A DNA stretch of 20,191 nucleotides from Promethearchaeia archaeon (GCA_029856155.1 JAHQWL010000080.1:1-20191); one strand, 5' to 3'. Shown: positions 809-19,934, counted from the first letter of the stretch. Notes: generated by a model not told the origin, from the letters alone. Made by a program: numbers and translations.

Positions 809-2609
809 TTAATTTTCTGACTTCTTTAATTTTTTACCAGAAGTTTTATATTTAGTTTTATCTTCATCAAGGAAAAAGGATTTAACAGGTTTTGAACTAT
901 CAATGGGAGTATTACATACCCAACAAACATTTTCCAAATCACTCAACGCTCGTGCGCAATTTTCACAATAAATCGCATTACATTTACAAATATATGAAAA
1001 ACCTAACACTTCTCCTTTGCACACTATGCAAACTTTTTTATCTTTATGTACTGTAACCGTTTCTTCACTTATTTGAGTGGATACACTTAATCCTTTATGG
1101 ACAATACGTTTAATTTGATTGTTTAATTGACTTAATTCTATACGTTCACTAATAGGTGCTTTAATTTTTTTTAATCGTTTCCACGTGTCTAATTTGTCAA
1201 TCAATTCTTCATGCTCGTTTAAAATTATTTCAGCTAACCTCCTAAGATCATGTCTTTTCGCTATTTGATGAGCTTGAATTAAAAACCTACGGGTTTTCTT
1301 TATATCAAAAGTTAATAATGCTATTCTAGCTTGTAATAGATAAGTTTCGCATAATAAAGGATAGGATTGGTTTTTTTCAGCGAACTCTAGGAGTTGGTCA
1401 ATATATGGTTGTATTTCATCCAAAATCTCAAGATCATTAGTTATGCGGAGTTCGATTAAAAATAGATCACAGAGGTGTATTATAGCACTTAGATTCAATT
1501 GAGAAGAAATCTTATCTTCAATAATTTGTTTTAATAATTCTTCTGACTTTGCCCTATTGTGAGTTCGGGTACTTGTTTTGAGTACTAAAGCTAAACAAAA
1601 GTGATAAGAAGCATTAGCATAATCATTATTTATTTGGCTGTTGAATCTCTGGAACTGCTCTAAATAACTCTTTGCTTGTGGGATATCACCAATTTCAACA
1701 AGAATTTGAATTAAATTACAAAAAGCTATACTTATATACCAAGGATTTCCGAGTTTTTCTTGAACTTTCAAAACTTTCTTAGAGGTATCTAAAAATTGCT
1801 CAATTTCACCCTGTTCGAGATATATAGCAGATATATTACCTAAAGCTACTGTCATGTATTCATTATCGTTCAATTCCTCGCAGATTGATAAAAAGTCTTT
1901 ATAATATTTAAGAGCATGATCATGTACACCTTTCTGAGAGTAAATATTTCCAAAATTAACAAGATTCATTGCTAAGGGAAAGCGAACGCTCTTCACATTA
2001 ACTTCTTCTATGAGTGCTTTGCAACGCTCAGCAGACTTTAAACCTAAATCTAAATCACCTTTATAAAACGTATAAATGTTTCCTATATAACTAAGCGATT
2101 CAATTATTTCCTTCTTGTTTCCCAGTTCCTCACGCAATATTAAGCTTTGCTCCACATACTTCAATGCATTATCACCATCACCTTTGTAAAAAAAAACATA
2201 CCCTTTAACAACAGCAAGAGACGCTTCTCTTTGTCTAAGCTCATGTTGTGATAAATGTTCTATTGTTTTTAACACTCTTTCACCTTGTAAAATTATATAA
2301 AAAGACTCATCTAATTTTTGAAGTCTTGCTAACGCTTTGCCCATAAGAATAGATGCATCAACAGAATAGAGAACTAATCCTAATTTTTTACTCTTTTGAT
2401 AAGCTTTTTCTGCGAACTTATATCCTTTCATTAAATTGGGATAAATTAATTAAAAGCAAACTCTTAAGGAGGAAGTATGAGAGTTGATCATTATCATTAA
2501 GATCATTTTTTTCCTCAATAGAATTCAAAAGTTGAAGAGCTTCTTCAAAATCCCCTTCTTCTGTCAATTTTTCTGCTAAAATTAAGTCGCCATGTTTCGC
2601 ACTAGTCAT
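809..2609 (-). pseudogene. TPR-repeat protein with C-terminal 8-Cys RING-like zinc finger, split by a one-base insertion (ORFs 2418..2609 and 809..2431); real lesion or sequencing error
   Basis: TPR-like helices (e.g. LVNFGNIYSQKGVHDHALKYY, LGNISAIYLEQGE) and C-terminal C-x2-C-x10-C-x-C-x4-C-x2-C-x10-C-x2-C. Removing one T from TTT at 2426-2428 fuses ...SQFNE to GYKFAEKAY..., giving a 599-aa ORF. Confidence 0.8.
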
Positions 2610-3662: not shown

Positions 3663-4010
3663 TTATGATGATATTTTTTTGAATTTAAGTTTATAAATTT
3701 TAATCCAAGTATTAAATTCTTCTTGAGTTATTAAATGAAGTTCAAATGGATGGCTAAGAGGTAATCCAGCATTTTCTTCGATTTTTGCAATCAGTTCTGC
3801 CCTTAATAAGTGCTTTTTTGGGACATCTGCAACTATGAGAATATCTATATCACTTCCAGCTACTAGATTCTCTTCGAGTATACTTCCAAATAAAAAAATT
3901 TGAGAATCCCTTAAGATAGTCTTTATACTATCCTCAATCTTTTTTAGAAATTTTTTGTAATTTTTAATTATTTCATTCGTTCTTATCATTTCTTTTAATA
4001 ATTTCGACAA
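3663..4010 (-). CDS. Minimal nucleotidyltransferase (MNT), partner of the HEPN protein
   Basis: LFGS-x8-SDIDIL pol-beta-type NTase motif. About 110 aa and overlaps the upstream HEPN gene. Start may be TTG 4010 or ATG 3989. Confidence 0.88.
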   Translation of the reverse strand: MSKLLKEMIRTNEIIKNYKKFLKKIEDSIKTILRDSQIFLFGSILEENLVAGSDIDILIVADVPKKHLLRAELIAKIEENAGLPLSHPFELHLITQEEFNTWIKIYKLKFKKISS

Positions 4011-4365
4011 TATCTTTTACCTCTTCTGCAATTTTTAAAGCCTCTTTAGCATCTTCTTTCTCATAAATAAAACTAAAATATCGTGAATTTAAATAAGCAC
4101 TTTCGAGAAAGATAAGTGCTTTTCTATCATAATTAAATATATCATTTTTAGTTAATTGATATAAGATTCCAAATAATTTCCTAATTGAATGCGTTTTGGG
4201 AATTTCACCACCCTTTTCTAAAATTGTAGCTTTTAGTAAAATTTGAACATATTGTTCTGCCATAAAACAAGTTAAATCCCAATCTTCTTTCTGGAATCTT
4301 TCTTTCGCTCCATCCAAAAAATTACTTGCTCGTTTTAGAAAAAGCTCTACTTCTTCTTTATGCAT
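3973..4365 (-). CDS. HEPN domain protein (archaeal-type HEPN of a HEPN-MNT pair)
   Basis: FMAEQ...LLKA...PKTHSIRKL...YLNSRY...EDAKEAL pattern typical of stand-alone HEPN proteins. 130 aa, coupled to MNT. Confidence 0.88.
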   Translation of the reverse strand: MHKEEVELFLKRASNFLDGAKERFQKEDWDLTCFMAEQYVQILLKATILEKGGEIPKTHSIRKLFGILYQLTKNDIFNYDRKALIFLESAYLNSRYFSFIYEKEDAKEALKIAEEVKDIVEIIKRNDKNE

Positions 4366-4571: not shown

Positions 4572-4793
4572 TTATTCTTCTCTAAATTTGATAAAAGGCA
4601 TTTCTGAATCCAATTTACGGGAAAGTTTTTCAGGATCAGCATAAACTACAACAACTATTAAGTATACTCCGATCATAACACCTCCACCTATATAGAATAT
4701 CATTGTAGGTAATAATCCAAATAAACCTTTAATAAATGCTCCGTTAAAATTAAAGCTAAAATGGAAGATGATCGTAGAGTTAAAATCCTTCAA
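4572..4793 (-). CDS. Small hydrophobic ORF, possibly the C-terminal remnant of a membrane protein
   Basis: One TM-like stretch (MIFYIGGGVMIGVYLIVVVVY) and a charged tail. TTG start with no clear RBS. Confidence 0.3.
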   Translation of the reverse strand: MKDFNSTIIFHFSFNFNGAFIKGLFGLLPTMIFYIGGGVMIGVYLIVVVVYADPEKLSRKLDSEMPFIKFREE

Positions 4794-4893: not shown

Positions 4894-5550
4894 TTAGGAA
4901 CTACTTGCGGCAGGTCTAATTTTTTCTCTTTCTGATAATTTTTCTGAGAGTTCCTTCTTCAAATCAGCTAATTTATTCTGTTTTCCAACTAAATTTTTAT
5001 TTATTTCCATTGCATCAATTTCAAACTTAGTTAAACCTTTCTGCATTTTAAGATAAGCCTCTTCTGCTTTAGAAATCTTCTCACTAGGAGCATTAGTATT
5101 TACTAGTTTTACATAAGCTTGTTGCTTTTTTGCTAGATTACCTCTTTCTTTAGCTTCATCTAACTTCTTATTAGCAAGTTTTACTTTTACTTCAGCCATT
5201 TCAGATTCAACATTCGCAAATTTTGCCTGAATTTCAGCTATCTTTGTTTGAACTACAGCAACTTTTTCATTGTATATCGCTTGACTTTTCTCCACTTTTA
5301 AAATATCATCACCAAATTTCAAAAGTTCTTTTACTTTTTCTTTTCTTTCAACTAATTTCTTACTTTTCTCAGCTAGTCTCTCTCGTATTTTTGCTAGTTC
5401 AATTTCATTCTTAACAAGCATTTCCCTAGCTTTTGCTCTTTTTACTATTTGTTTGGCTAAAGCTTTCATTTCGCTAGCAGATTCTTTTTCACTTTTCGCA
5501 ATATTAGAATTTTCTTCGGCTAATCTTTCAATATTTTTAATCTCTTCCAT
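4894..5550 (-). CDS. Uncharacterised all-helical/coiled-coil protein, paralog A (218 aa)
   Basis: K/E/A-rich with Ala every 7 residues. GGTGA RBS precedes ATG 5550; the track's GTG 5559 lies inside that RBS. Aligns end to end with 6801..7469. Confidence 0.9.
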   Translation of the reverse strand: MEEIKNIERLAEENSNIAKSEKESASEMKALAKQIVKRAKAREMLVKNEIELAKIRERLAEKSKKLVERKEKVKELLKFGDDILKVEKSQAIYNEKVAVVQTKIAEIQAKFANVESEMAEVKVKLANKKLDEAKERGNLAKKQQAYVKLVNTNAPSEKISKAEEAYLKMQKGLTKFEIDAMEINKNLVGKQNKLADLKKELSEKLSEREKIRPAASSS

Positions 5551-5587
5551 ATAAATCACCTATTTTTTTATTTTATAATCTATCAGA

Positions 5588-5755
5588 CTAACTATAAATT
5601 TCATCGGAATTCTCTAACTTTTCTTCCTCATCCTCAAAATCCGAATCATCATTTTCATCAGAATCATTAAATTCGTTATCTCCCTCATTTTCATCATCGT
5701 AATCATCATATTCATAATCATATTTCTTCTTCTTTTTTTTGGGGTCTCCTTTCAT
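5588..5755 (-). CDS. 55-aa microprotein with a basic N-terminal patch and highly acidic body (not in the ORF track)
   Basis: Hand translation: MKGDPKKKKKKYDYEYDDYDDENEGDNEFNDSDENDDSDFEDEEEKLENSDEIYS. ATG 5755, TAG 5588-5590, GAGG about 13 nt upstream. Ends 37 nt before paralog A on the same strand. Confidence 0.75.
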   Translation of the reverse strand: MKGDPKKKKKKYDYEYDDYDDENEGDNEFNDSDENDDSDFEDEEEKLENSDEIYS

Positions 5756-5807
5756 TTTAATTGATTTTCCTCTTTATTTTTTTAGTTAGTATAGATAATT
5801 TATTATA

Positions 5808-5836
5808 ATGATAACATAATATTTAAATGTTATCAT
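5808..5836. promoter_or_regulatory. Perfect 10-bp inverted repeat ATGATAACAT-N9-ATGTTATCAT, candidate operator
   Basis: Arms at 5808-5817 and 5827-5836, in the divergent intergenic region next to the RHH gene. A TTTAAAT TATA-like element overlaps the spacer. Confidence 0.55.
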
Positions 5837-5863
5837 ATGAAAATAATAGGATCAATCGACAAC

Positions 5864-5902
5864 TTTATATACATATAAAAACATTTTATATATATATATA
5901 AA
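5864..5902. promoter_or_regulatory. Palindromic TATA-like elements and (TA)7 tract, candidate bidirectional promoter
   Basis: TTTATAT-AC-ATATAAA at 5864-5879 and the 18-bp palindrome TTTATATATATATATAAA at 5885-5902, about 50 nt upstream of ATG 5952. Confidence 0.4.
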
Positions 5903-5951
5903 TAAGTTTTTGAGAAATCACTAATAAAGAAAAAAGAGAGAAATTTTTAAA

Positions 5952-6527
5952 ATGGCAAAAAAACCACCAAAGAAAAAAGACAACTTTCTTGGCTTTAGAC
6001 TTTCAGAAGAAGTACTTAATAAATTAGATATTATTGCAAAACAAACCAATAAAACTCGTGGATTGGTTGCGAAAAATGCCATTGAACAATGGCTTAATCT
6101 GGAATTATTTAATCAAAATAACAACTTGATTATGATATCTAAAATTGCATTCTCTAAAATTTTATCCAAAATGAATAGTGAAGATTTAAATATCCTAGCT
6201 AATGAAGTTTCTTCCCTATATTCTGACCTAATGAAATTCATAGTAGCTAAACCTATGAATAACGATTCATTGAAGCATTATGCTGCCTTTTCAATTAATT
6301 TATATGGAAAAAATGGATTAAAATGGTTTAATACTATCGATATTCAGATTCGAGATAATATCTTTATCTTTAGGGGTTTGCATGATCTAGATGAAATTTT
6401 TTCTAATTACTTTTCATTGTTATATAAAAATCTGTTATCCGAATATTTTCAGTTAGAATTTATAACAACAACCGAAGAAAAAACCTCAAATTTAATTCAT
6501 TTAGAGTTTAAACTTAATAAAAAGTGA
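5952..6527 (+). CDS. Ribbon-helix-helix (CopG/MetJ/Arc-like) transcription regulator with an uncharacterised C-terminal alpha/beta domain
   Basis: N-terminal FLGFRLSEEVLNKLDIIAKQTNKTRGLVAKNAIEQWL fits beta-strand/helix/helix RHH. The C-terminal ~140 aa may be a ligand-binding domain (inference). Confidence 0.75.
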   Translation: MAKKPPKKKDNFLGFRLSEEVLNKLDIIAKQTNKTRGLVAKNAIEQWLNLELFNQNNNLIMISKIAFSKILSKMNSEDLNILANEVSSLYSDLMKFIVAKPMNNDSLKHYAAFSINLYGKNGLKWFNTIDIQIRDNIFIFRGLHDLDEIFSNYFSLLYKNLLSEYFQLEFITTTEEKTSNLIHLEFKLNKK

Positions 6528-6669
6528 ATAAAAAGCAGAAAATTTCAAAAAAGTCAAATAATGAAGATATCATTAAAAAGAGGAGAATAAAATAGCTTCT
6601 TTAAAAGATGAACTATCATTAAAATTAAATAAGCAAGAAAAAATTAAACACACTAATATTTTTTCTTAA
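6528..6669 (+). pseudogene. Decayed 3' remnant of a third helical-protein paralog
   Basis: 6583-6669 translates to ENKIASLKDELSLKLNKQEKIKHTNIFS*, matching the C-termini ENKLADLKKELSLIFAEREKIRH (B) and QNKLADLKKELSEKLSEREKIRP (A). The preceding EDIIKK is in another frame, and this frame has no start codon. Confidence 0.75.
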
Positions 6670-6800
6670 TAGATTTGAATGTAAGACGTGTCTAAAAATC
6701 AAAGTAATAATTATAACAAATTAAATTTAAATACGATTTTAACTAGCTAAAATATGTTTATAAATTCATTTTTTACATCCCATTTTAAAGGTAAAAAGAT

Positions 6801-7469
6801 ATGGAAAATTTAACGCAAATTGAAAAGGAAGCTCAACACAATCGTAAAATAGCTCACTCTGAAAAAGAACTAGCCCAAAAACAAAAAACTAATGCTTTAA
6901 CTGAAATTAAAAAAGCAAAAGCTAGAGAAACTTTATTAAAAATTGAATATGATCTCGCTGATATAAAAAAAGATTTAGCGATTAAAAGAAAAGTTTTGGC
7001 GGAAGAAAAAACAGAAATTAAAAAAAATCATATTTTAGATTTTTCGGATGAAGAACTAAGAATTGAAAATAATTATGCAATTTATAATGAGAAGATAGCA
7101 AAAAATCAAAAGGAAGTTGCTGAAATTAATAAAAAAATTGCCTTAGTAGAGAAACAAGTTGCTGAGCAAAAATTAAAATTAGCTAAAGAAAGATTGGAGC
7201 TTGCAAAAGTACGAGAAAAATTAGCTAATAAGCAAACTACGTATTTAAAAGTTGCTCGAGCAAACGCTTCTGAAGATAAAATTTTGAAAGCCAAAAATAA
7301 TGCAGATAACCAAAAAAAGATACTATTAAAACAGAAAAATGAGGTAATGGAAAAGGAAAAAGATGTAAGAAAAAAAGAAAATAAACTGGCAGATTTAAAG
7401 AAGGAACTTTCATTGATATTTGCTGAAAGAGAAAAAATTAGACATCCTGGTGTTGTCATTGCGGGATAA
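6801..7469 (+). CDS. Uncharacterised all-helical/coiled-coil protein, paralog B (222 aa)
   Basis: Shares IAxSEKE, AKARE, AIYNEK, NKLADLKKELS and EREKIR with paralog A. Collinear with one 2-aa gap. Confidence 0.9.
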   Translation: MENLTQIEKEAQHNRKIAHSEKELAQKQKTNALTEIKKAKARETLLKIEYDLADIKKDLAIKRKVLAEEKTEIKKNHILDFSDEELRIENNYAIYNEKIAKNQKEVAEINKKIALVEKQVAEQKLKLAKERLELAKVREKLANKQTTYLKVARANASEDKILKAKNNADNQKKILLKQKNEVMEKEKDVRKKENKLADLKKELSLIFAEREKIRHPGVVIAG

Positions 7470-7512
7470 ATTATATAAAGTTATTATAGAAATAAAAAAA
7501 AAATTGATATAA

Positions 7513-8316
7513 TTGATTTTTCAAAATCTTTTCGCTGTCTTTTTAAGAGACACCTTTTTTCCTCTTTTTCTTTCAATATTAGCAATTTTTATAGGATATA
7601 TTATTTATTTACTGGTTAAAAGGCAACTCTTCAAACTTGTTAAACATGAGAAATTAGAGCTAACTACGGCAAAGAATATCTCAAAATTAATTAAATATCT
7701 CGTTGTTTTGATCATTTCGACGGCTATTCTCGTACAATTCGCGGAGAGTTTAGGTTTTATCACAGCATTATTCACTCTTGTTGGGGGGACTATAATAGGT
7801 TTTGCTGCTATGAATACTTTGGGTAATATGATAGCAGGTATTATTATAATGGTAAGTAGACCTTTTACTGTTGGAGATCGAATATTATACGATGGTAAAA
7901 TCGCTGATATTGTCGAAATAAAATTGATCTATACAACTTTGATTGATCTTGATAATCTTAAGATTTCAGTTCCTAATCAGATGTTATTATCGCAAGAGAT
8001 TTTTGACTTTGGGAAAAAGGAGATAATTAGAAGACATGTGACCATAACCCCTGGATTTGAAGAAGATAGGAAAAAAGTTGAAGAGGTTTTATTAGAGGTT
8101 GCTGGTAAGGTAAATCAGGTATTGGAAGACCCTAAACCGTATGTTTGGATAAATAGTTTTCAGAATTATGCAGTTGAATATAGATTATATGTTTTCATAA
8201 AAGATATCAAAGATTTACCTCGAATTGAATCTGAATTACATAAAGCTGTATTGGATGCTTGTAAAGAAAATAAGATAGATATTAGGACGCCTCTTTTACA
8301 TAAAGGAATTAATTAG
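7513..8316 (+). CDS. mscS: Small-conductance mechanosensitive channel, MscS family
   Basis: Three TM helices, Gly/Ala-rich TM3 (GGTIIGFAAMNTLGNMIAG), RPFTVGDRI, VPN, and a canonical cytoplasmic C-terminal domain. Confidence 0.92.
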   Translation: MIFQNLFAVFLRDTFFPLFLSILAIFIGYIIYLLVKRQLFKLVKHEKLELTTAKNISKLIKYLVVLIISTAILVQFAESLGFITALFTLVGGTIIGFAAMNTLGNMIAGIIIMVSRPFTVGDRILYDGKIADIVEIKLIYTTLIDLDNLKISVPNQMLLSQEIFDFGKKEIIRRHVTITPGFEEDRKKVEEVLLEVAGKVNQVLEDPKPYVWINSFQNYAVEYRLYVFIKDIKDLPRIESELHKAVLDACKENKIDIRTPLLHKGIN

Positions 8317-8338
8317 AAAAAAATTATTTACAGCTATT

Positions 8339-9469
8339 TTATATCCATTTTTTTCTTTTAAAGAAATACAACATAACAAGAACTATTGAAACCATTATCA
8401 TTATTAGGATTGGATATGCAAAGGGTTGAGTTAGTTCAGGCATATGAAGGAAGTTCATACCATAAAAACCTGCTAAAAATGATAATGGGATAAAAATTGT
8501 TGAAATGATTGTTAAAACTTTCATAATGTCATTCATCCTATTGCTAACACTTGATAAATACATATCTAACATTCCAAAAATTATATCCCGATAATTTTCT
8601 AACAGATCACTAATTCTAAAAATGTGTTCATATATGTCTCTTAGATAGATCTGTAATTCATCACCGATTAGATTTGATGGTTCACGTTGCAATTTATTGA
8701 TTACTTCTCTTATGGGCCATATTGATTTTCTCAACTCAATAGAAGATCTTTTCAATCGATAAATACTTTGTAGTGTTTCTGGTTCAGGATTCTTTATTAA
8801 AATGTCTTCAATGTTTTCTATATCCTCTCCTACTTTTTCTATTACAATAAAATAATCATCAACTATAATGTCAATTAAAACATAAAATAGGTAATCAGCA
8901 CCCATTACTCGAACTTTTCCTTTTGGAACTTGAATTCTCTCGTAAATAGGATTAAAAAGGTTAGTATCCCGCTCTTGGAATGAAATTACATAATTATCTC
9001 CTAATATTAAACTTATTTGTTCATATTCAAAATCTTGTTGTTCTTGATTCCAACTCAACTTTTTTAGAACTGCAAAAATATAATTCCCAAAATCCTCTAA
9101 TTTAGGTCTTTGATTTGGGCTTAAAATATCTTCTAGAACAAGAGGATGTAAATTAAATTGATGACCAATCTCTTCAATAACTTTTATTTGTGTAAGACCG
9201 TATATGTCAATCCATTTAATGAAAGGCTTTTCAATTTTAGTAAGGTCCATCTGAATCTCTTTAAATTCCTCTGAATTAAAACGATCGGCATTATATTCAG
9301 TTACTTTAATTTTAGTTTTTTCTTTTACTTTATCTCCTGTATAAATTAGAGTTCCTGGAGGAAGACCAACCTTCCTTTTCTTTTTACTTGAAGGAATTGC
9401 ATTTCTTAGAGGTTTAGAAAATCTCCTCAAATTATCCCACCTAAACAATATGAAGTTATTTTTAACCAA
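8339..9469 (-). CDS. corA: Magnesium/cobalt transporter CorA
   Basis: GLPPGTLIYTG N-terminus, LHPLVLEDI...QRPKLE, MNDIMKVLT, YGMNF and MPEL signatures, two C-terminal TM helices. Exact start uncertain. Confidence 0.96.
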   Translation of the reverse strand: MVKNNFILFRWDNLRRFSKPLRNAIPSSKKKRKVGLPPGTLIYTGDKVKEKTKIKVTEYNADRFNSEEFKEIQMDLTKIEKPFIKWIDIYGLTQIKVIEEIGHQFNLHPLVLEDILSPNQRPKLEDFGNYIFAVLKKLSWNQEQQDFEYEQISLILGDNYVISFQERDTNLFNPIYERIQVPKGKVRVMGADYLFYVLIDIIVDDYFIVIEKVGEDIENIEDILIKNPEPETLQSIYRLKRSSIELRKSIWPIREVINKLQREPSNLIGDELQIYLRDIYEHIFRISDLLENYRDIIFGMLDMYLSSVSNRMNDIMKVLTIISTIFIPLSFLAGFYGMNFLHMPELTQPFAYPILIMIMVSIVLVMLYFFKRKKWI

Positions 9470-9571
9470 TTATTTATTAAACCAACTTTTAAAATAAAAG
9501 TTTTCTTATATTTTTTTTAAATAAAATTTAAATTTCAAGATAATTAAAAAATTGGAAACAGATGTTTACGT

Positions 9572-10468
9572 ATGAAAAGAATTTATAGAATACTTATATG
9601 GATATCATTTATTGGAATGTTTGTCTTAATATATTTTTATTCTGGCTTTGAGCAATTATTATTGAATCTAATACTTTTAAATCTGGTCGCCTATGTTTTG
9701 AGATCAATATTAATTGATATATTTCAAAGTTTAATTAAAAAATTATTAGTTCGTTATGTACTCCTGTTAATTATAAATATCATTTGGTTAATATTTCCTT
9801 TTTGGCTGATTGCTAGTTATAATCCTGATTACTTTGTGGCAATTATTTCTTTTCTGGTTGTAGCAATATCATTAACCTTTCAAAACACTATAAATAATGT
9901 TATTAGTGGAATATTATTATTATTTTCAGGGGGATTTGAAGTAGGAGATTTAATTCAAATTAATAATATTGATGGAATAATAAAAGAGATCACATTAAAT
10001 CATATAAAATTAGTAGATTTTGATGGAAGTATCACATATATTCCAAATCGAGTTGCATTTAATTCATCGGTCACTAGATTCACTCATATTGAATTAACAA
10101 AATTTGATAAAATAAATTTTGGATCTATGATAAAAAAAATGAAAAAAACCTTTACTGGGAAAGAAAAATTAACAAGGTATACTAAAGTTGTAGAACTTTT
10201 AGGAACAGTTAATGGGGAAAGAATTGATGAAATTTTAGAACCTATTCTTAAAAAATATGAACCTCATTTTGGGATTAAGCCTTATTTTTATGTGAATAAT
10301 ACTGTTGCTGATCGTTTAAGCATTACATTTCAGATATTATCAAGAGTTCCAAATTTAATTTTAGAATATTTAGATTCTTTTCTTAAAGATGTTCTTTTTC
10401 AAATATATCACAATGAGATTTACTTTGATTGGAATCAAAAAAACCAAGCAAAAAATTCGGTGATATAA
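9572..10468 (+). CDS. MscS-family channel, divergent C-terminal domain
   Basis: About 4 TM helices, FQNTINNVISG, and the FEVGDLIQINNIDGII...DGSITYIPN middle beta-domain. Confidence 0.85.
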   Translation: MKRIYRILIWISFIGMFVLIYFYSGFEQLLLNLILLNLVAYVLRSILIDIFQSLIKKLLVRYVLLLIINIIWLIFPFWLIASYNPDYFVAIISFLVVAISLTFQNTINNVISGILLLFSGGFEVGDLIQINNIDGIIKEITLNHIKLVDFDGSITYIPNRVAFNSSVTRFTHIELTKFDKINFGSMIKKMKKTFTGKEKLTRYTKVVELLGTVNGERIDEILEPILKKYEPHFGIKPYFYVNNTVADRLSITFQILSRVPNLILEYLDSFLKDVLFQIYHNEIYFDWNQKNQAKNSVI

Positions 10469-10470
10469 AG

Positions 10471-11373
10471 TTGGTGGCAATATTTAGAACAGATTTCGAG
10501 GCTCTTGTTTATTTAATTATAATAGGAATTGGAATATATTTAATAAACAAATTTATATCATCTATAGTAGGGCATATTAAAAGAATTCCATTAAAAGAAA
10601 AAATCATTGTTAAGTTTTTATTAAAAATCATCTCTATTTTCGTAATCATATATTTTATAACTGCAGGTTTTCCAAGTTTTGATGATATACCACCAGAATA
10701 TGTAGCCATTTTGACAAGTTCAATAAGTATTGCTATTGCTTTTGCATCCAGTGGAATTTTCACCAATTTAATATCAGGAATGGTTTTGATGATTATACGT
10801 CCTTTAGATGTCGGAGATCTAGTTAAGATTGAAAATGATAAAGGTATAGTAAGATCGATAGGGTTAACAAAAACTATACTAGAGACTTTTGATAATATTT
10901 TAATTGAGAAATCAAATTCTCAAATAATTTCTGCTACTATTGTGAATTACACAGTCAAGCTTGGTAGAAGAAAAAGTTTTGAAGATTTCAAAAAAAAAAT
11001 TCTTGTACCTCAAGATAAAGGAATTTTAAAAATTCAAGAAACTCTTGGTGATAAAGACTTAGAACGTGATTTAAGAGAAGCTTATGATAAACTTCATTCT
11101 AAACTTTATCCAAACCTCTATAACTATTCATTTAGAATGACATTTCCCTATAAAAGGTTTCGATTGATAATAGACAACATAGAGGCGCTATGTTTGAAAT
11201 ATAAAGAAAGTGGTATTTTTCGACTTAAACCACGATTTGATATTGTAGATTTTGGTTTTAGAATAACAGTAAAATTCCGTATTTTAACATTTACTCCTCA
11301 AAAAATATTTGATTTCCAACCAAAATTTGCTAAAGAAGTATATAATATAATTTATAAATATAGCGATAAATAA
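10471..11373 (+). CDS. MscS-family channel, divergent C-terminal domain with a charged insertion
   Basis: Three TM helices, IAFASSGIFTNLISG and RPLDVGDLVKI. GGTGA at 10459-10463 favours TTG 10471 as the start, 2 nt after the upstream stop, rather than 10429. Confidence 0.85.
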   Translation: MVAIFRTDFEALVYLIIIGIGIYLINKFISSIVGHIKRIPLKEKIIVKFLLKIISIFVIIYFITAGFPSFDDIPPEYVAILTSSISIAIAFASSGIFTNLISGMVLMIIRPLDVGDLVKIENDKGIVRSIGLTKTILETFDNILIEKSNSQIISATIVNYTVKLGRRKSFEDFKKKILVPQDKGILKIQETLGDKDLERDLREAYDKLHSKLYPNLYNYSFRMTFPYKRFRLIIDNIEALCLKYKESGIFRLKPRFDIVDFGFRITVKFRILTFTPQKIFDFQPKFAKEVYNIIYKYSDK

Positions 11374-12299: not shown

Positions 12300-12947
12300 T
12301 TAAACATTTTTCTTTCTTCTCTTAATTCTCTTTAAATATTTCGGTTTTTGTTGTGCTAACGGTTTTATGTACCCTAGTAAATCGTCAAAAACTATTTTTT
12401 GCTTTAATTGTGGACGAAAAACAAACTTAAAATATTTTTTTTTCCAATAGAAACGTAAACTATTAAGATATACTAAAATTTCTGTAATTTGTTGGGGGTT
12501 AATTTCTGTATATGAAGTTATTATATTTTCCTCGGTATTAGATTCAATATTTCTCTTTAATAAACTGCCATCCGTTTTCAATATATAGATTGTTCCATTT
12601 AAATATGCATCATTTTCTTTATTATGAGTTAATCCGAGATACCGTGCGTATAAATTAAAATATTGATTAATCTTAGCATATAGATAATTTTTCTGTATTA
12701 CATCACGATTCTTATTTTTTATTAATGTCTTTAGTTCTTGGTCCTCCATTTCTCCTGTGCTAGTTTGGAGTATTTCATAATATTTCACTTGGAGGTTGGT
12801 AAATATTAGCATCTCTATATCCCTATAAAAATCCTGAACTTCAACAGATAAAATCCTGTCATCTTTGAGGTGATCCCAGATTAATAAGAAAAGTACTGCA
12901 ATTGAAACCCCTAGACTAACATATACAATGATATCCTGAGGATTCAT
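12300..12947 (-). CDS. Hypothetical protein with a single N-terminal TM anchor and basic C-terminal tail
   Basis: Hydrophobic IIVYVSLGVSIAVLFLLIW. 215-aa ORF with ATG start, ending KRIKRRKKNV. No family recognised. Confidence 0.7.
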   Translation of the reverse strand: MNPQDIIVYVSLGVSIAVLFLLIWDHLKDDRILSVEVQDFYRDIEMLIFTNLQVKYYEILQTSTGEMEDQELKTLIKNKNRDVIQKNYLYAKINQYFNLYARYLGLTHNKENDAYLNGTIYILKTDGSLLKRNIESNTEENIITSYTEINPQQITEILVYLNSLRFYWKKKYFKFVFRPQLKQKIVFDDLLGYIKPLAQQKPKYLKRIKRRKKNV

Positions 12948-13335: not shown

Positions 13336-13899
13336 TTATTTTTTGAATTTTTCTTTTCCTGTAAAGCCAACTAAAAATCTAGCAAAACCACTCAGAAACA
13401 TAGAAATAGCGAACATAGAAAAAACCATTGAATTACTTAAGGATGGTGCAAACAGTACAATTAATGATAAAACGACTACAACAACACCTATAATGAAGAG
13501 GAGTATTCGATACCATTTCAAATAATTAGCACCTGCTAGTCCTATAAAGATTCTCGAAATTCCTACGATTAATATAATAATCGAATATATAAAAATTATT
13601 AATGCTACTGAAAATGTAGGATTTGAAAATACAGCAATTATCATAGAAATTGAAACTACAATTAAGATAATCCCAGATATAAATTTAACAATTGCACCAG
13701 CACCAGTTAGTTCTTCATTTGAGAATGCATTAAATATTCTTCCCATACCTGATAATATTAAAATTGCCGAAAACAATAGGATAAGTAATAAAATTGCAGC
13801 ACCAGAATAAAAGAATATTGTAATAGCAAGTATCATTATTAATAAACCGTTTGTTATATTTGATGCATTTAGTCCCTTCTCAACTGATTTTTCACTCAT
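13336..13899 (-). CDS. HdeD/DUF308-like integral membrane protein
   Basis: Six TM helices in a repeated pattern (ILSGMGRI / IVGISRI / LSGFARF), 187 aa. Confidence 0.7.
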   Translation of the reverse strand: MSEKSVEKGLNASNITNGLLIMILAITIFFYSGAAILLLILLFSAILILSGMGRIFNAFSNEELTGAGAIVKFISGIILIVVSISMIIAVFSNPTFSVALIIFIYSIIILIVGISRIFIGLAGANYLKWYRILLFIIGVVVVVLSLIVLFAPSLSNSMVFSMFAISMFLSGFARFLVGFTGKEKFKK

Positions 13900-17841: not shown

Positions 17842-19518
17842 TTGTTTGATAAAAATTATTTGGATAAAGTTAAAGAAGAAAAAGAAAAATGGGATAAACT
17901 ATATGAAAGTTTGAAAGAACGAGATGTAAAATTTGTTACTGATTCAGATATTCCTATTAAAAACCTATATACCCCTTTAGATATAAAAGATAAAGACTAC
18001 ATAAATGAAATCAGTTTTCCAGGGGTTGCTCCTTATACTAGAGGAGTCTATCCCTCTATGTATAGAGGTCACTTATGGACTATGAGATTATTTTCAGGTC
18101 ATGGAACTCCTGAAGAAACCAATAAACGGTGGAAGTTTCTTTATGAAAATGGTGAAACTGGGTTTAGTGCTGCAGTAGATGCATTAACTTTCAACGGAAT
18201 TGACCCAACAGAACCCGACGGGGCACCAGAGGTTGGAACATCTGGCGTACCACTTTATTGTATTGACAGTCTCTTTGCATTAACTGAAGATATTCCAATA
18301 GACAAAATTAGTGTAGCTTTAGTAGTAGAACCTTTCACTTCTGCTCCCGTTTGCTCTATGTATTTTAATATGGCAAAAATGCGGGGTTATGATATTAAAA
18401 ATTTGATGGGAACAACTCAAAATGATATATTGACCATGACGGTAGGGTATATCCCATATAAGAATAGTCCTCCTAACCATATACTTCGCTTAGCATGTGA
18501 TTTTATTGAATGGACAGTAGCTCAAAAAAATGTCCCTAAATGGCATCCGATAAATTTCACTGGCTATAATTATAGAGAAGGAGGAATTGATGCTGTTCAG
18601 GAATTAGCCTTTGTATTTGCAAGTGCGTGTTCTCATATTGATAATTTAATTGAAAGAGGATGGAAAGCTGATGATTTTGTAGGACGTTTAGCATTTCATT
18701 TAGCTGCACACAAGGATTTTTTCGAGGAAATTGCTAAATTCAGAGCGGCTAGGAGAATTTGGTATAAATTAATGAAAGATAAATATGAAGTTAAGGATCC
18801 AAGGAATTTCGGTTTTCGTTTCCATGTACAGACTGCGGGATCTTCTTTAACAGCACAATCGCCTAAAATCAATATAGTAAGAACCGCAATTCAAGCCTTA
18901 GAAGCAAACTTGGGAGGATGTCAGTCGTTACATACGAATTCATATGACGAAGCTATTTGTTTACCTTCTGAAGAAGCAGCTTTAGTTGCTTTAAGAACTC
19001 AACAAGTAATATCAGATGAATCTAGAATCCATAATACAATTGATCCTCTCGCTGGGTCATACTTTATCGAATGGTTAACAGATGAAGTAGAAGATAGGGT
19101 ATGGAAATATATTGACAGAATCCAAAAAGTTGGTAATATTGATAAGGCTCTCTCTACAGGCTTTTTATATAAAGAAATGAGGGATGCTTTTCATAGACGG
19201 CGAATGAAACTTGAGAATGGCGATGAGATAATGCTTGGTGTAAATAAATATGCAGTACCTTATGATACAGTCACAGACGTTTTTAGAACTAATAAAGGGG
19301 CAATAGATATTGAAGTCCGTCGAATTGAAAAACTAAAAGCTCGAAGGGATAATACAAAATTAGAGAAAATTTTAGATAAGTTGCGAGATGTCTGTGAGAA
19401 AGAAGAAAATGTGATGCCGGTAGTTATGGAAGCAACAAGGGAAGGAGCAACTGTCGGAGAAGTTTGTAATATTTACAGGGAAATCTGGGGAACTTGGGAT
19501 CCTCCATTGGCAATCTAA
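17842..19518 (+). CDS. B12-dependent acyl-CoA mutase, large (substrate-binding) subunit, methylmalonyl-CoA mutase family
   Basis: FPGVAPYTRG, WTMR, GTTQNDIL, FFEEIAKFRAARRIW, FHVQTAG, QSLHTNSYDEA and DPLAGSYFIE. No fused B12 domain. Confidence 0.95.
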   Translation: MFDKNYLDKVKEEKEKWDKLYESLKERDVKFVTDSDIPIKNLYTPLDIKDKDYINEISFPGVAPYTRGVYPSMYRGHLWTMRLFSGHGTPEETNKRWKFLYENGETGFSAAVDALTFNGIDPTEPDGAPEVGTSGVPLYCIDSLFALTEDIPIDKISVALVVEPFTSAPVCSMYFNMAKMRGYDIKNLMGTTQNDILTMTVGYIPYKNSPPNHILRLACDFIEWTVAQKNVPKWHPINFTGYNYREGGIDAVQELAFVFASACSHIDNLIERGWKADDFVGRLAFHLAAHKDFFEEIAKFRAARRIWYKLMKDKYEVKDPRNFGFRFHVQTAGSSLTAQSPKINIVRTAIQALEANLGGCQSLHTNSYDEAICLPSEEAALVALRTQQVISDESRIHNTIDPLAGSYFIEWLTDEVEDRVWKYIDRIQKVGNIDKALSTGFLYKEMRDAFHRRRMKLENGDEIMLGVNKYAVPYDTVTDVFRTNKGAIDIEVRRIEKLKARRDNTKLEKILDKLRDVCEKEENVMPVVMEATREGATVGEVCNIYREIWGTWDPPLAI

Positions 19519-19535
19519 CTAATGAGGTGCTTAAT

Positions 19536-19934
19536 ATGAGCGAGAGAAAAATAAGAGTTTTAATGTCTAAACCAGGTATTGATGGCCATTGGCGGGGAGG
19601 AATCGTAGTTTCAAGAGCAATTAGAGATGCTGGGATGGAGCTTATCTTCGGAGGATTTCAAAATGTAGAACAAATTGTTGAATCTGCAATCCAAGAGGAT
19701 GTCGACGTGATAGGGCTAAGCATTCATTCTGGAGCTCACTTTGCCTATACACAACAAGTTATTGATCTTTTAAAAGAAAAGGGAGTTCTAGGTAATATCA
19801 TGATACTTGTTGGTGGAGTAGTTCCCGCAAAAGATTTTTCAAAATTAAAAGAAATGGGTGTTGCGAATATATACGGTCCAGGCTCAATGACATCGGATAT
19901 TGTCGAATTTATTAAAACGCATGTCAAAAAATAA
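19536..19934 (+). CDS. Cobalamin-binding small subunit of the acyl-CoA mutase
   Basis: KPGIDGHWRG (DxHxxG), IGLSIHSG and VGGVVP. GAGGTG RBS at 19524-19529 supports ATG 19536 rather than 19494. Confidence 0.95.
   Translation: MSERKIRVLMSKPGIDGHWRGGIVVSRAIRDAGMELIFGGFQNVEQIVESAIQEDVDVIGLSIHSGAHFAYTQQVIDLLKEKGVLGNIMILVGGVVPAKDFSKLKEMGVANIYGPGSMTSDIVEFIKTHVKK

Follow-up and report, generated by a model that had tools for sequence, protein, structure and literature searches.

A possible stress-inducible membrane-scaffold module of predicted BAR-like proteins, encoded beside MscS and CorA channel genes in an Asgard archaeon

The sequence analyzed here is a contig of 20,191 nucleotides (contig C80, GCA_029856155.1 JAHQWL010000080.1:1-20191; its whole length is referred to below as the window) from a Promethearchaeia genome of 4.1 Mb, which is 97% complete and has a G+C content of ~27%; we infer that the host is a Loki-type Asgard archaeon. 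Positions 4894-11373 of the window contain genes for two paralogous helical proteins, A and B, an acidic microprotein, a one-component regulator, three MscS-family channels and a CorA magnesium channel. Two divergent units start from one conserved control region: the microprotein gene followed by the gene for A, and the regulator gene followed by the relic of a lost paralog, the gene for B and the first MscS gene (MscS1). The three-helix protein family containing A and B is denoted HX.

Paralog A (4894-5559, minus strand) has 221 amino acids and matches the family profile with E 6.5e-84; to judge from its orthologues, translation probably begins at the ATG at 5550. Paralog B (6801-7469, plus strand) has 222 amino acids, belongs to no Pfam family and carries the conserved tail EREKIRHPGV; its nearest named homologue bears the depositor label 'Candidatus Hermodarchaeota archaeon'. 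The two proteins are 47% identical over 217 amino acids (E 7e-45), in agreement with the first-pass annotation of the sequence, which had noted two homologous helical genes of ~220 codons diverging from a central region. Both paralogs are highly helical, consist of charged residues to 40% and are basic (net charge +12 and pI 9.5 for A, +15 and 9.6 for B), these values being whole-protein charges that do not imply any placement on the surface. The third paralog that the first-pass annotation had suspected in the right arm is represented by its C-terminus: the stretch 6577-6660 (plus strand) yields tblastn matches of 57-61% identity over 28 amino acids to residues 191-218 of B-type proteins, and some relatives, as in L043 (such labels denote individual loci), have an intact extra paralog at the same position. 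The genome contains three HX copies, two of them within 3 kb of MscS/CorA genes and the third on contig C77. The latter copy (C77:19706-20344; L004:9704-10345, minus strand) is full-length, has no channel gene near it and is accompanied by genes for an FrhB-like protein, a Gtr1/RagA-type small GTPase, an alpha/beta hydrolase and a legumain-like peptidase; the surroundings are alike in L053 and L054.

The acidic microprotein (5588-5755, minus strand; 55 amino acids, net charge -17) is encoded 5' of A on the same strand, as had been annotated. Its open reading frame is kept in 19 of 20 related loci, where it is located between the A and regulator genes. The acidic middle part varies, while both ends are fixed: the N-terminus starts with MKGDPKKKKKKYDYE, containing a lysine run, and the C-terminus is DEIYS, with (Y/F)DEIYS across the relatives. 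Given this conservation and the fixed ends, the microprotein gene is regarded as real. A small membrane open reading frame on the other side of A (4572-4793, 3' of the gene) was considered as a part of the module and rejected, as it was found in one relative only.

The control region was analyzed by alignment of 26 orthologous regions 5' of the regulator gene. The conserved blocks follow the same order across genera: a half-site GATAACAT (5810-5817); a TATA-like box TATTTAAA (5820-5827), whose minus-strand reading faces the microprotein-A operon and which would act as its promoter; a palindrome of the 8-2-8 type (5828-5845) with the consensus TGTTTTCA-NN-TGAAAACA, represented in the window by TGTTATCATATGAAAATA; and, after ~24 variable bases, a TCGACAAC-TTTATATA block (5856-5872, plus strand), which by comparison with the archaeal promoter consensus is likely the B recognition element and TATA box (BRE/TATA) of the regulator-B operon. 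The two A/T boxes flanking the palindrome are probably divergent TATA boxes. With at most two mismatches, the palindrome is present in 25 of the 26 loci, 66-131 nucleotides 5' of the regulator gene; the 1.0 Mb of fetched loci contains just six further matches, and the whole 4.1-Mb genome eight matches. It is a candidate operator of the kind expected for ribbon-helix-helix (RHH) regulators, i.e., an inverted repeat at the regulator's own promoter, and a palindrome near this gene had indeed been anticipated by the first-pass annotation. The gaps between the regulator and B genes (2-18 nucleotides) and between the B and MscS1 genes (39-43 nucleotides) in several genomes fit a single transcript. 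In the window, the B-MscS1 spacer of 43 nucleotides, exactly as annotated, holds a TATA-like run, so co-transcription here is not certain. Scans for sigma-70-type promoters were set aside as uninformative, the host being archaeal.

The regulator gene (5952-6527, plus strand) encodes a protein of 191 amino acids, in which a predicted RHH domain (residues ~10-57) precedes a C-terminal V4R/Bet3/H-NOX-like sensor domain (residues ~60-190). Structures were modeled with AF2 as single chains, and folds were searched with Foldseek and with VIA, which is independent of Foldseek. In the AF2 model the N-terminus has the beta-alpha-alpha arrangement of an RHH fold (strand ~12-15, helices 19-32 and 36-56), and residues 10-57 align to RHH antitoxins, the PutA RHH domain, SvtR and TraM with VIA Z-scores of 4.5-5.5 over ~45 residues, which agrees with the original call of an RHH protein. 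The RHH matches at the sequence level are weak (aCcr1, E 0.005, 16.7 bits vs a cut-off of 60; RelB-like, E 0.025; CopG in PDB, E 0.11), and no Pfam family, V4R included, matches the protein. The C-terminal domain is modeled with pLDDT ~90, and its VIA matches are BcsD (Z 10.4, 113 amino acids, root-mean-square deviation, rmsd, 2.9), the TRAPP/Bet3 core (8.3), PoxR (8.0), DmpR (7.6), H-NOX (7.6) and the V4R protein MJ1460 (7.4); Foldseek also listed H-NOX, BcsD and Bet3. By the model and these matches the protein is a predicted one-component regulator of the RHH + V4R-like type. The same C-terminal fold occurs in the V4R/Bet3/H-NOX sensors of transcription factors such as PoxR and DmpR and in MJ1460 (Podar et al., 2008, PMC2253512). 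Both PoxR and DmpR are phenol sensors, whose V4R-type domain controls transcription and has a small molecule as its ligand; theirs accompanies a sigma-54 activator module, whereas the predicted sensor of the protein described here is joined to an RHH domain. The regulator profile is confined to the same class as HX. Within the genus, orthologous regulators (E < 1e-90) were found exclusively in HX-bearing genomes (27 of 27), and 11 genomes have HX without the regulator.

The channel genes occupy the rest of the cluster. MscS1 (7513-8316, plus strand) starts 43 nucleotides 3' of B and matches both the MscS domain PF00924 (6e-12, 45.9 bits) and the C-terminal domain PF21082 (3e-11), the latter being found in this MscS protein only. 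It is followed by corA (8339-9469, minus strand; PF01544, 247.9 bits, E 1.7e-73), the product of which contains the GMN signature in the motif YGMNF, and by two further MscS genes, MscS2 (9572-10468, plus strand; PF00924, 2.8e-15, 56.6 bits) and MscS3 (10429-11373, plus strand; PF00924, 7.9e-14, 52.0 bits), which overlap by 40 nucleotides. The PF00924 cut-off is 20.2 bits, and the translations of all three MscS genes have hydrophobic N-terminal halves. The first-pass annotation had treated corA and the last two MscS genes as a continuation of the right arm; all the genes pass the Pfam cut-offs, but corA is encoded on the minus strand, converges with the B-MscS1 arm and is therefore not a member of the rightward operon. 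No other PF00924 or PF01544 genes are present in the genome: its only three MscS genes and its only CorA gene all sit in this cluster. The tandem MscS2-MscS3 pair, with a match to the beta-domain only, travels together in most relatives and may form a heteromeric or atypical channel.

The divergent intergenic region between corA and MscS2 has an element of its own, AACTTTTAAAATAAAAGTT (9484-9502), a perfect palindrome around a TATA-like core that is conserved in most of 16 aligned regions. It is distinct from the regulator operator and occurs just once in the window, where chance alone would give 0 matches. A candidate second operator at the start of MscS2 (9563-9580) was not counted, having three mismatches, with 16 of 100 shuffles matching as often in the window; ATGAAAAGA, which makes up half of the site, is coding sequence, and related sites with two mismatches recur there in five relatives.

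The HX profile was run over 400 genomes of the phylum, and conservation of the neighborhood was assessed in 62 fetched loci with 91 HX genes, most of them related by descent and orthologous within one family-level clade. Sixty of the 91 HX genes are located within 5 kb of a CorA or MscS gene, and for 51 the regulator gene is at most 5 kb away, so the association foreseen by the first-pass annotation recurs, and it does so in most deep clades. Unsupervised clustering of neighbors ranked CorA (32 loci), MscS (30) and the regulator (26) as the commonest, followed by an unknown 210-aa protein (26), a CitMHS/ArsB-type transporter (22), a DUF308 membrane protein assigned by Pfam (17; 13336-13899 in the window, minus strand) and an unknown 215-aa protein (15; 12300-12947, minus strand). 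Gene order has been reshuffled repeatedly, with the channel association being kept in most deep HX clades and also in other taxonomic families of the class (L045, L046). Among directly adjacent pairs, convergent CorA and HX genes were observed in 16 loci, the regulator gene followed by HX in eight, and HX followed by MscS on the same strand also in eight loci, the last arrangement being distributed over three HX clades with gaps of 39-117 nucleotides.

Several additional genes accompany particular branches of the family. In one HX subfamily, the HX gene is followed on the same strand, at 183-232 nucleotides, by an SPFH/Band-7 gene in four of four loci (L050, L055, L056, and L063); in L056 (9869-13442) a Usp gene and a second CorA gene come after the SPFH gene, and second CorA copies adjoin an HX member in both L050 and L056. 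A TFB gene is located 1.6-3 kb away in each of these four loci. In five relatives, although not in this window, an Hsp20 gene stands 22-49 nucleotides from the A-type gene, in the arm of the microprotein (L034:6882-7328, L039:13745-14311, L040:7764-8321, L059:8339-8905, and L069:8636-9199).

The AF2 model of B, built from a 41-sequence alignment, consists of three long antiparallel helices (2-75, 83-153, and 158-211; pLDDT 94, pTM 0.78), and has the features of the BAR fold, i.e., an antiparallel coiled coil of three long helices in ~200-250 amino acids. All of the top seven Foldseek matches are BAR domains (SNX1-SNX5, Lsp1, arfaptin, SNX1, and endophilin among them), with TM-scores up to 0.60 (0.59-0.60 for Lsp1). 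The top eight VIA matches are also all of the BAR type, each spanning nearly the whole chain, and include arfaptin (Z 13.0, rmsd 5.2, 191 amino acids), SNX5 (12.3), FAM92A1 (11.9), Lsp1 (11.7), APPL1 (11.0), Mvp1 (10.9) and Vps5 (10.6), with the caveat that Z-scores below ~13 are common, and possibly generic, for long-helix bundles. The first entry of another type is an SMC coiled coil (Z 10.5). CHMP3 is the sole ESCRT-III structure among the top 50 VIA matches (Z 9.1, 112 residues, rank 50); the fact that other ESCRT-III entries are missing from these 50 does not exclude an ESCRT-III fold. A conceptual likeness to BAR-based or Psp/ESCRT-III responses had been suggested by the first-pass annotation: a BAR-like fold is indeed predicted, while a Psp/ESCRT-III signal does not stand out in sequence or fold.

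HX has few members, all of them from one Asgard class. Of the 134 genomes in the taxonomic family to which the window belongs, 79 gave a match in the profile search, as did five of nine genomes from three further families of the class; HX was not found in 14 genomes of the sister family or in ~240 genomes elsewhere in the phylum. Searching three closed sister-family genomes with the profile and a deep-branching member gave no HX match even at E 0.1 (closed genomes of this family measure 4.4 and 6.0 Mb). Among 1.84 billion representative proteins, the profile retrieved 37 HX members at E < 1e-30 plus fragments, and beyond them only long coiled-coil proteins; no fused forms of HX were found there. 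Neither A nor B had a Pfam match at E 0.1, NCBIfam produced just sub-threshold SMC/coiled-coil noise, and the HX profile matched only designed coiled coils in PDB. The top score in the ESM Atlas was 0.79, for unnamed bacterial clusters, which is under the meaningful level.

Comparison with characterized systems places HX closest to the BAR superfamily (arfaptin, 1i49; SNX1/SNX5, 8a1g; FAM92A1, 8ceg; Pil1/Lsp1, 3plt and 8qb8; endophilin; APPL1), with which it shares the length of ~200-220 amino acids, the three long antiparallel helices of the model, the net basic charge and the occurrence as paralog pairs, as in Pil1/Lsp1 or SNX1/SNX5. The BAR proteins of eisosomes are tied to responses to membrane tension, which fits the MscS context of HX. 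Unlike BAR proteins, HX shows no similarity to the Pfam BAR profiles, lacks the partner domains PX, PH and SH3, and resides in a prokaryotic stress-operon setting with a dedicated RHH regulator. PspA, Vipp1 and ESCRT-III resemble HX in being all-helical proteins of ~220 amino acids from stress-linked operons with a dedicated regulator, and conceptually the response would be of the same kind; however, HX is predicted to have three long helices of nearly equal length, and not a hairpin followed by short helices. In bacteria, BdpA has been proposed to shape membranes via a BAR-like coiled coil, acting on outer-membrane extensions in a context and under a regulation different from those of HX. Within Asgard archaea, 'Vps5-BAR' homologues have been reported (Eme et al., 2023, PMC10307638), and BAR-domain proteins were seen in a Lokiactin pull-down from Lokiarchaeum ossiferum (PMC13716822); the relevant passages of these two papers mention no linkage to MscS or CorA. 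HX appears, by sequence, to be a family separate from the Asgard Vps5-BAR homologues, since the matches of the Vps5 Pfam model in this genome and 60 relatives were all noise below the threshold, and HX was not found in the 14 sister-family genomes, the three closed ones included. No paper on the HX family or on its link to MscS, CorA and the RHH-V4R regulator was found in the literature searched, and the gene combination, as had been supposed, seems to be undescribed.

Other genes of the window are mentioned briefly. A toxin-antitoxin-type MNT-HEPN pair (3663-4365, minus strand; HEPN, 3973-4365, and the minimal nucleotidyltransferase, 3663-4010, overlapping by 38 nucleotides) occupies the place beside A where most relatives have the CitMHS-type transporter and the 210-aa unknown gene; in L024 the MNT-HEPN pair is located elsewhere in the locus. 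A 540-aa TPR protein (809-2431, minus strand) has a weak C-terminal RING match (zf-C3HC4_3, E 9e-4, below the cut-off). Our placement of the host among Loki-type archaea draws on this TPR-RING protein and the Gtr1/RagA-type GTPase, on the label of the nearest named homologue of B and on the closed genomes of the sister family. Genes for the large (558 amino acids) and the B12-binding small (146 amino acids) subunits of a methylmalonyl-CoA-mutase-type enzyme (17842-19934, plus strand; 25-nucleotide overlap) are syntenic with the locus in many relatives.

We tentatively interpret the locus as a lineage-specific, self-regulated, stress-inducible module of membrane-associated scaffold proteins of Loki-type Asgard archaea, an interpretation to which we assign somewhat less than an even chance and which draws on the fold, the charge and the neighbors for the function of the module. 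The regulator would bind the palindrome and repress both divergent units, one of which includes an MscS gene in many genomes, until its sensor domain is occupied by a small ligand that could be hydrophobic or derived from a lipid. A and B could then bind as dimers to the anionic cytoplasmic face of the membrane and stabilize or sense curved or stretched regions of it, thereby buffering membrane tension beside CorA and the MscS channels, which would act as solute-release valves. The acidic microprotein may keep the basic A and B proteins soluble or inactive until they are needed.

Alternatively, A and B could be soluble stress proteins, either chaperone-like or similar to LEA- or PspA-type coiled coils, with a protective role for proteins or other contents of the cell, rather than curvature scaffolds, the channels merely sharing with them an island of stress and ion-homeostasis genes. 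This is unlikely, yet it has to be taken seriously: the Hsp20 genes beside A-type genes in five loci and the Usp gene in one D-type locus would suit such proteins, as would the abundance of charged residues, the high helicity and the fact that neither a membrane-targeting helix nor a BAR sequence signature was found in HX proteins. On the other hand, the B model is an ordered, confidently packed bundle and not a disordered chain, PspA_IM30 and Snf7 gave no match even at E 1, and the neighbors are overwhelmingly membrane proteins (MscS, CorA, SPFH, DUF308, and the CitMHS transporter). The latter also speaks against A and B being basic coiled coils that bind nucleic acids and organize the nucleoid or RNA, with the microprotein serving as a nucleic-acid mimic that titrates them, which we consider very improbable. 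Such a role would account for the opposite charges (+12 and +15 vs -17), and one homologue is auto-labeled as 'chromosome segregation ATPase', with weak matches to SMC coiled coils. However, these matches reach 13 bits against a cut-off of 567, typical coiled-coil noise, and no DNA-binding motif was found in the proteins.

A number of observations weigh against the scaffold interpretation. The operator was not found at the CorA and MscS2/3 promoters, and corA, convergent with MscS1, is not co-transcribed with it. As the operator is confined to the microprotein-A/regulator-B promoter, while the CorA-MscS2 region has its own element and corA is transcribed in the opposite direction, the proposal of the first-pass annotation that all these genes are co-regulated is not supported; co-regulation is supported for the microprotein-A and regulator-B-(MscS1) units, and does not extend to CorA or MscS2/3. 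Moreover, 31 of the 91 HX genes, including the C77 paralog, have no channel gene within 5 kb, and, as most of the sampled loci are related by descent, the counts overstate independence and inherited synteny may account for some of the linkage. The same facts, together with the FrhB-like and RagA-like genes adjoining the C-type paralog, would be explained if the channel link were inherited synteny without shared function, and the real unit were only microprotein-A/regulator-B, with a cytoskeletal, structural or other role unrelated to membrane tension. We hold this, too, to be unlikely: despite many rearrangements CorA and MscS are still the commonest neighbors, in L045, L046 and most deep clades as well, second CorA copies stand beside an HX member in L050 and L056, and same-strand pairs of HX followed by MscS recur in three clades. 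Further points against the scaffold interpretation come from the distribution and from the BAR comparison. HX is missing from 16 of the 53 genomes of the genus and is therefore accessory. Forty-one HX members had no match to BAR, Vps5, Arfaptin, Pil1, IMD, FCH, PspA_IM30 or Snf7 at E 1, and the BAR model (PF03114), like that of Vps5 (PF09325), produced just sub-threshold noise in the genome and its relatives. The Foldseek E-values of the BAR matches are weak (1.5e-3 to 7e-3), and a bundle of three long helices is a simple fold, for which high scores come easily. Given the weak E-values and the possibly generic Z-scores, B is read as a protein of predicted BAR-like topology with no sequence-profile match to the BAR clan, and not as an established homologue.

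Scaffolds built of BAR domains typify the membrane dynamics of eukaryotes, and it is not clear how they arose. A bolder version of the scaffold interpretation, in our opinion a distinctly doubtful one, is that HX is a true, very divergent BAR homologue. In that case its proteins would form a curvature scaffold, or a membrane reservoir like an eisosome, that is induced by stress, works in functional coupling with mechanosensitive channels and is controlled by an RHH-V4R (Bet3-like) regulator responding to lipids. If the resemblance in fold is only convergent, the locus would still define a stress regulon not yet described in archaea, together with a new class of RHH-V4R regulators. If the homology is true, HX would represent, in prokaryotes, a forerunner of the control that BAR proteins exert on membrane tension. 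With few genes and one operator, the HX module offers a concrete small test system for the question of whether BAR-type control of membrane shape and tension was already present in archaea close to the ancestor of eukaryotes.

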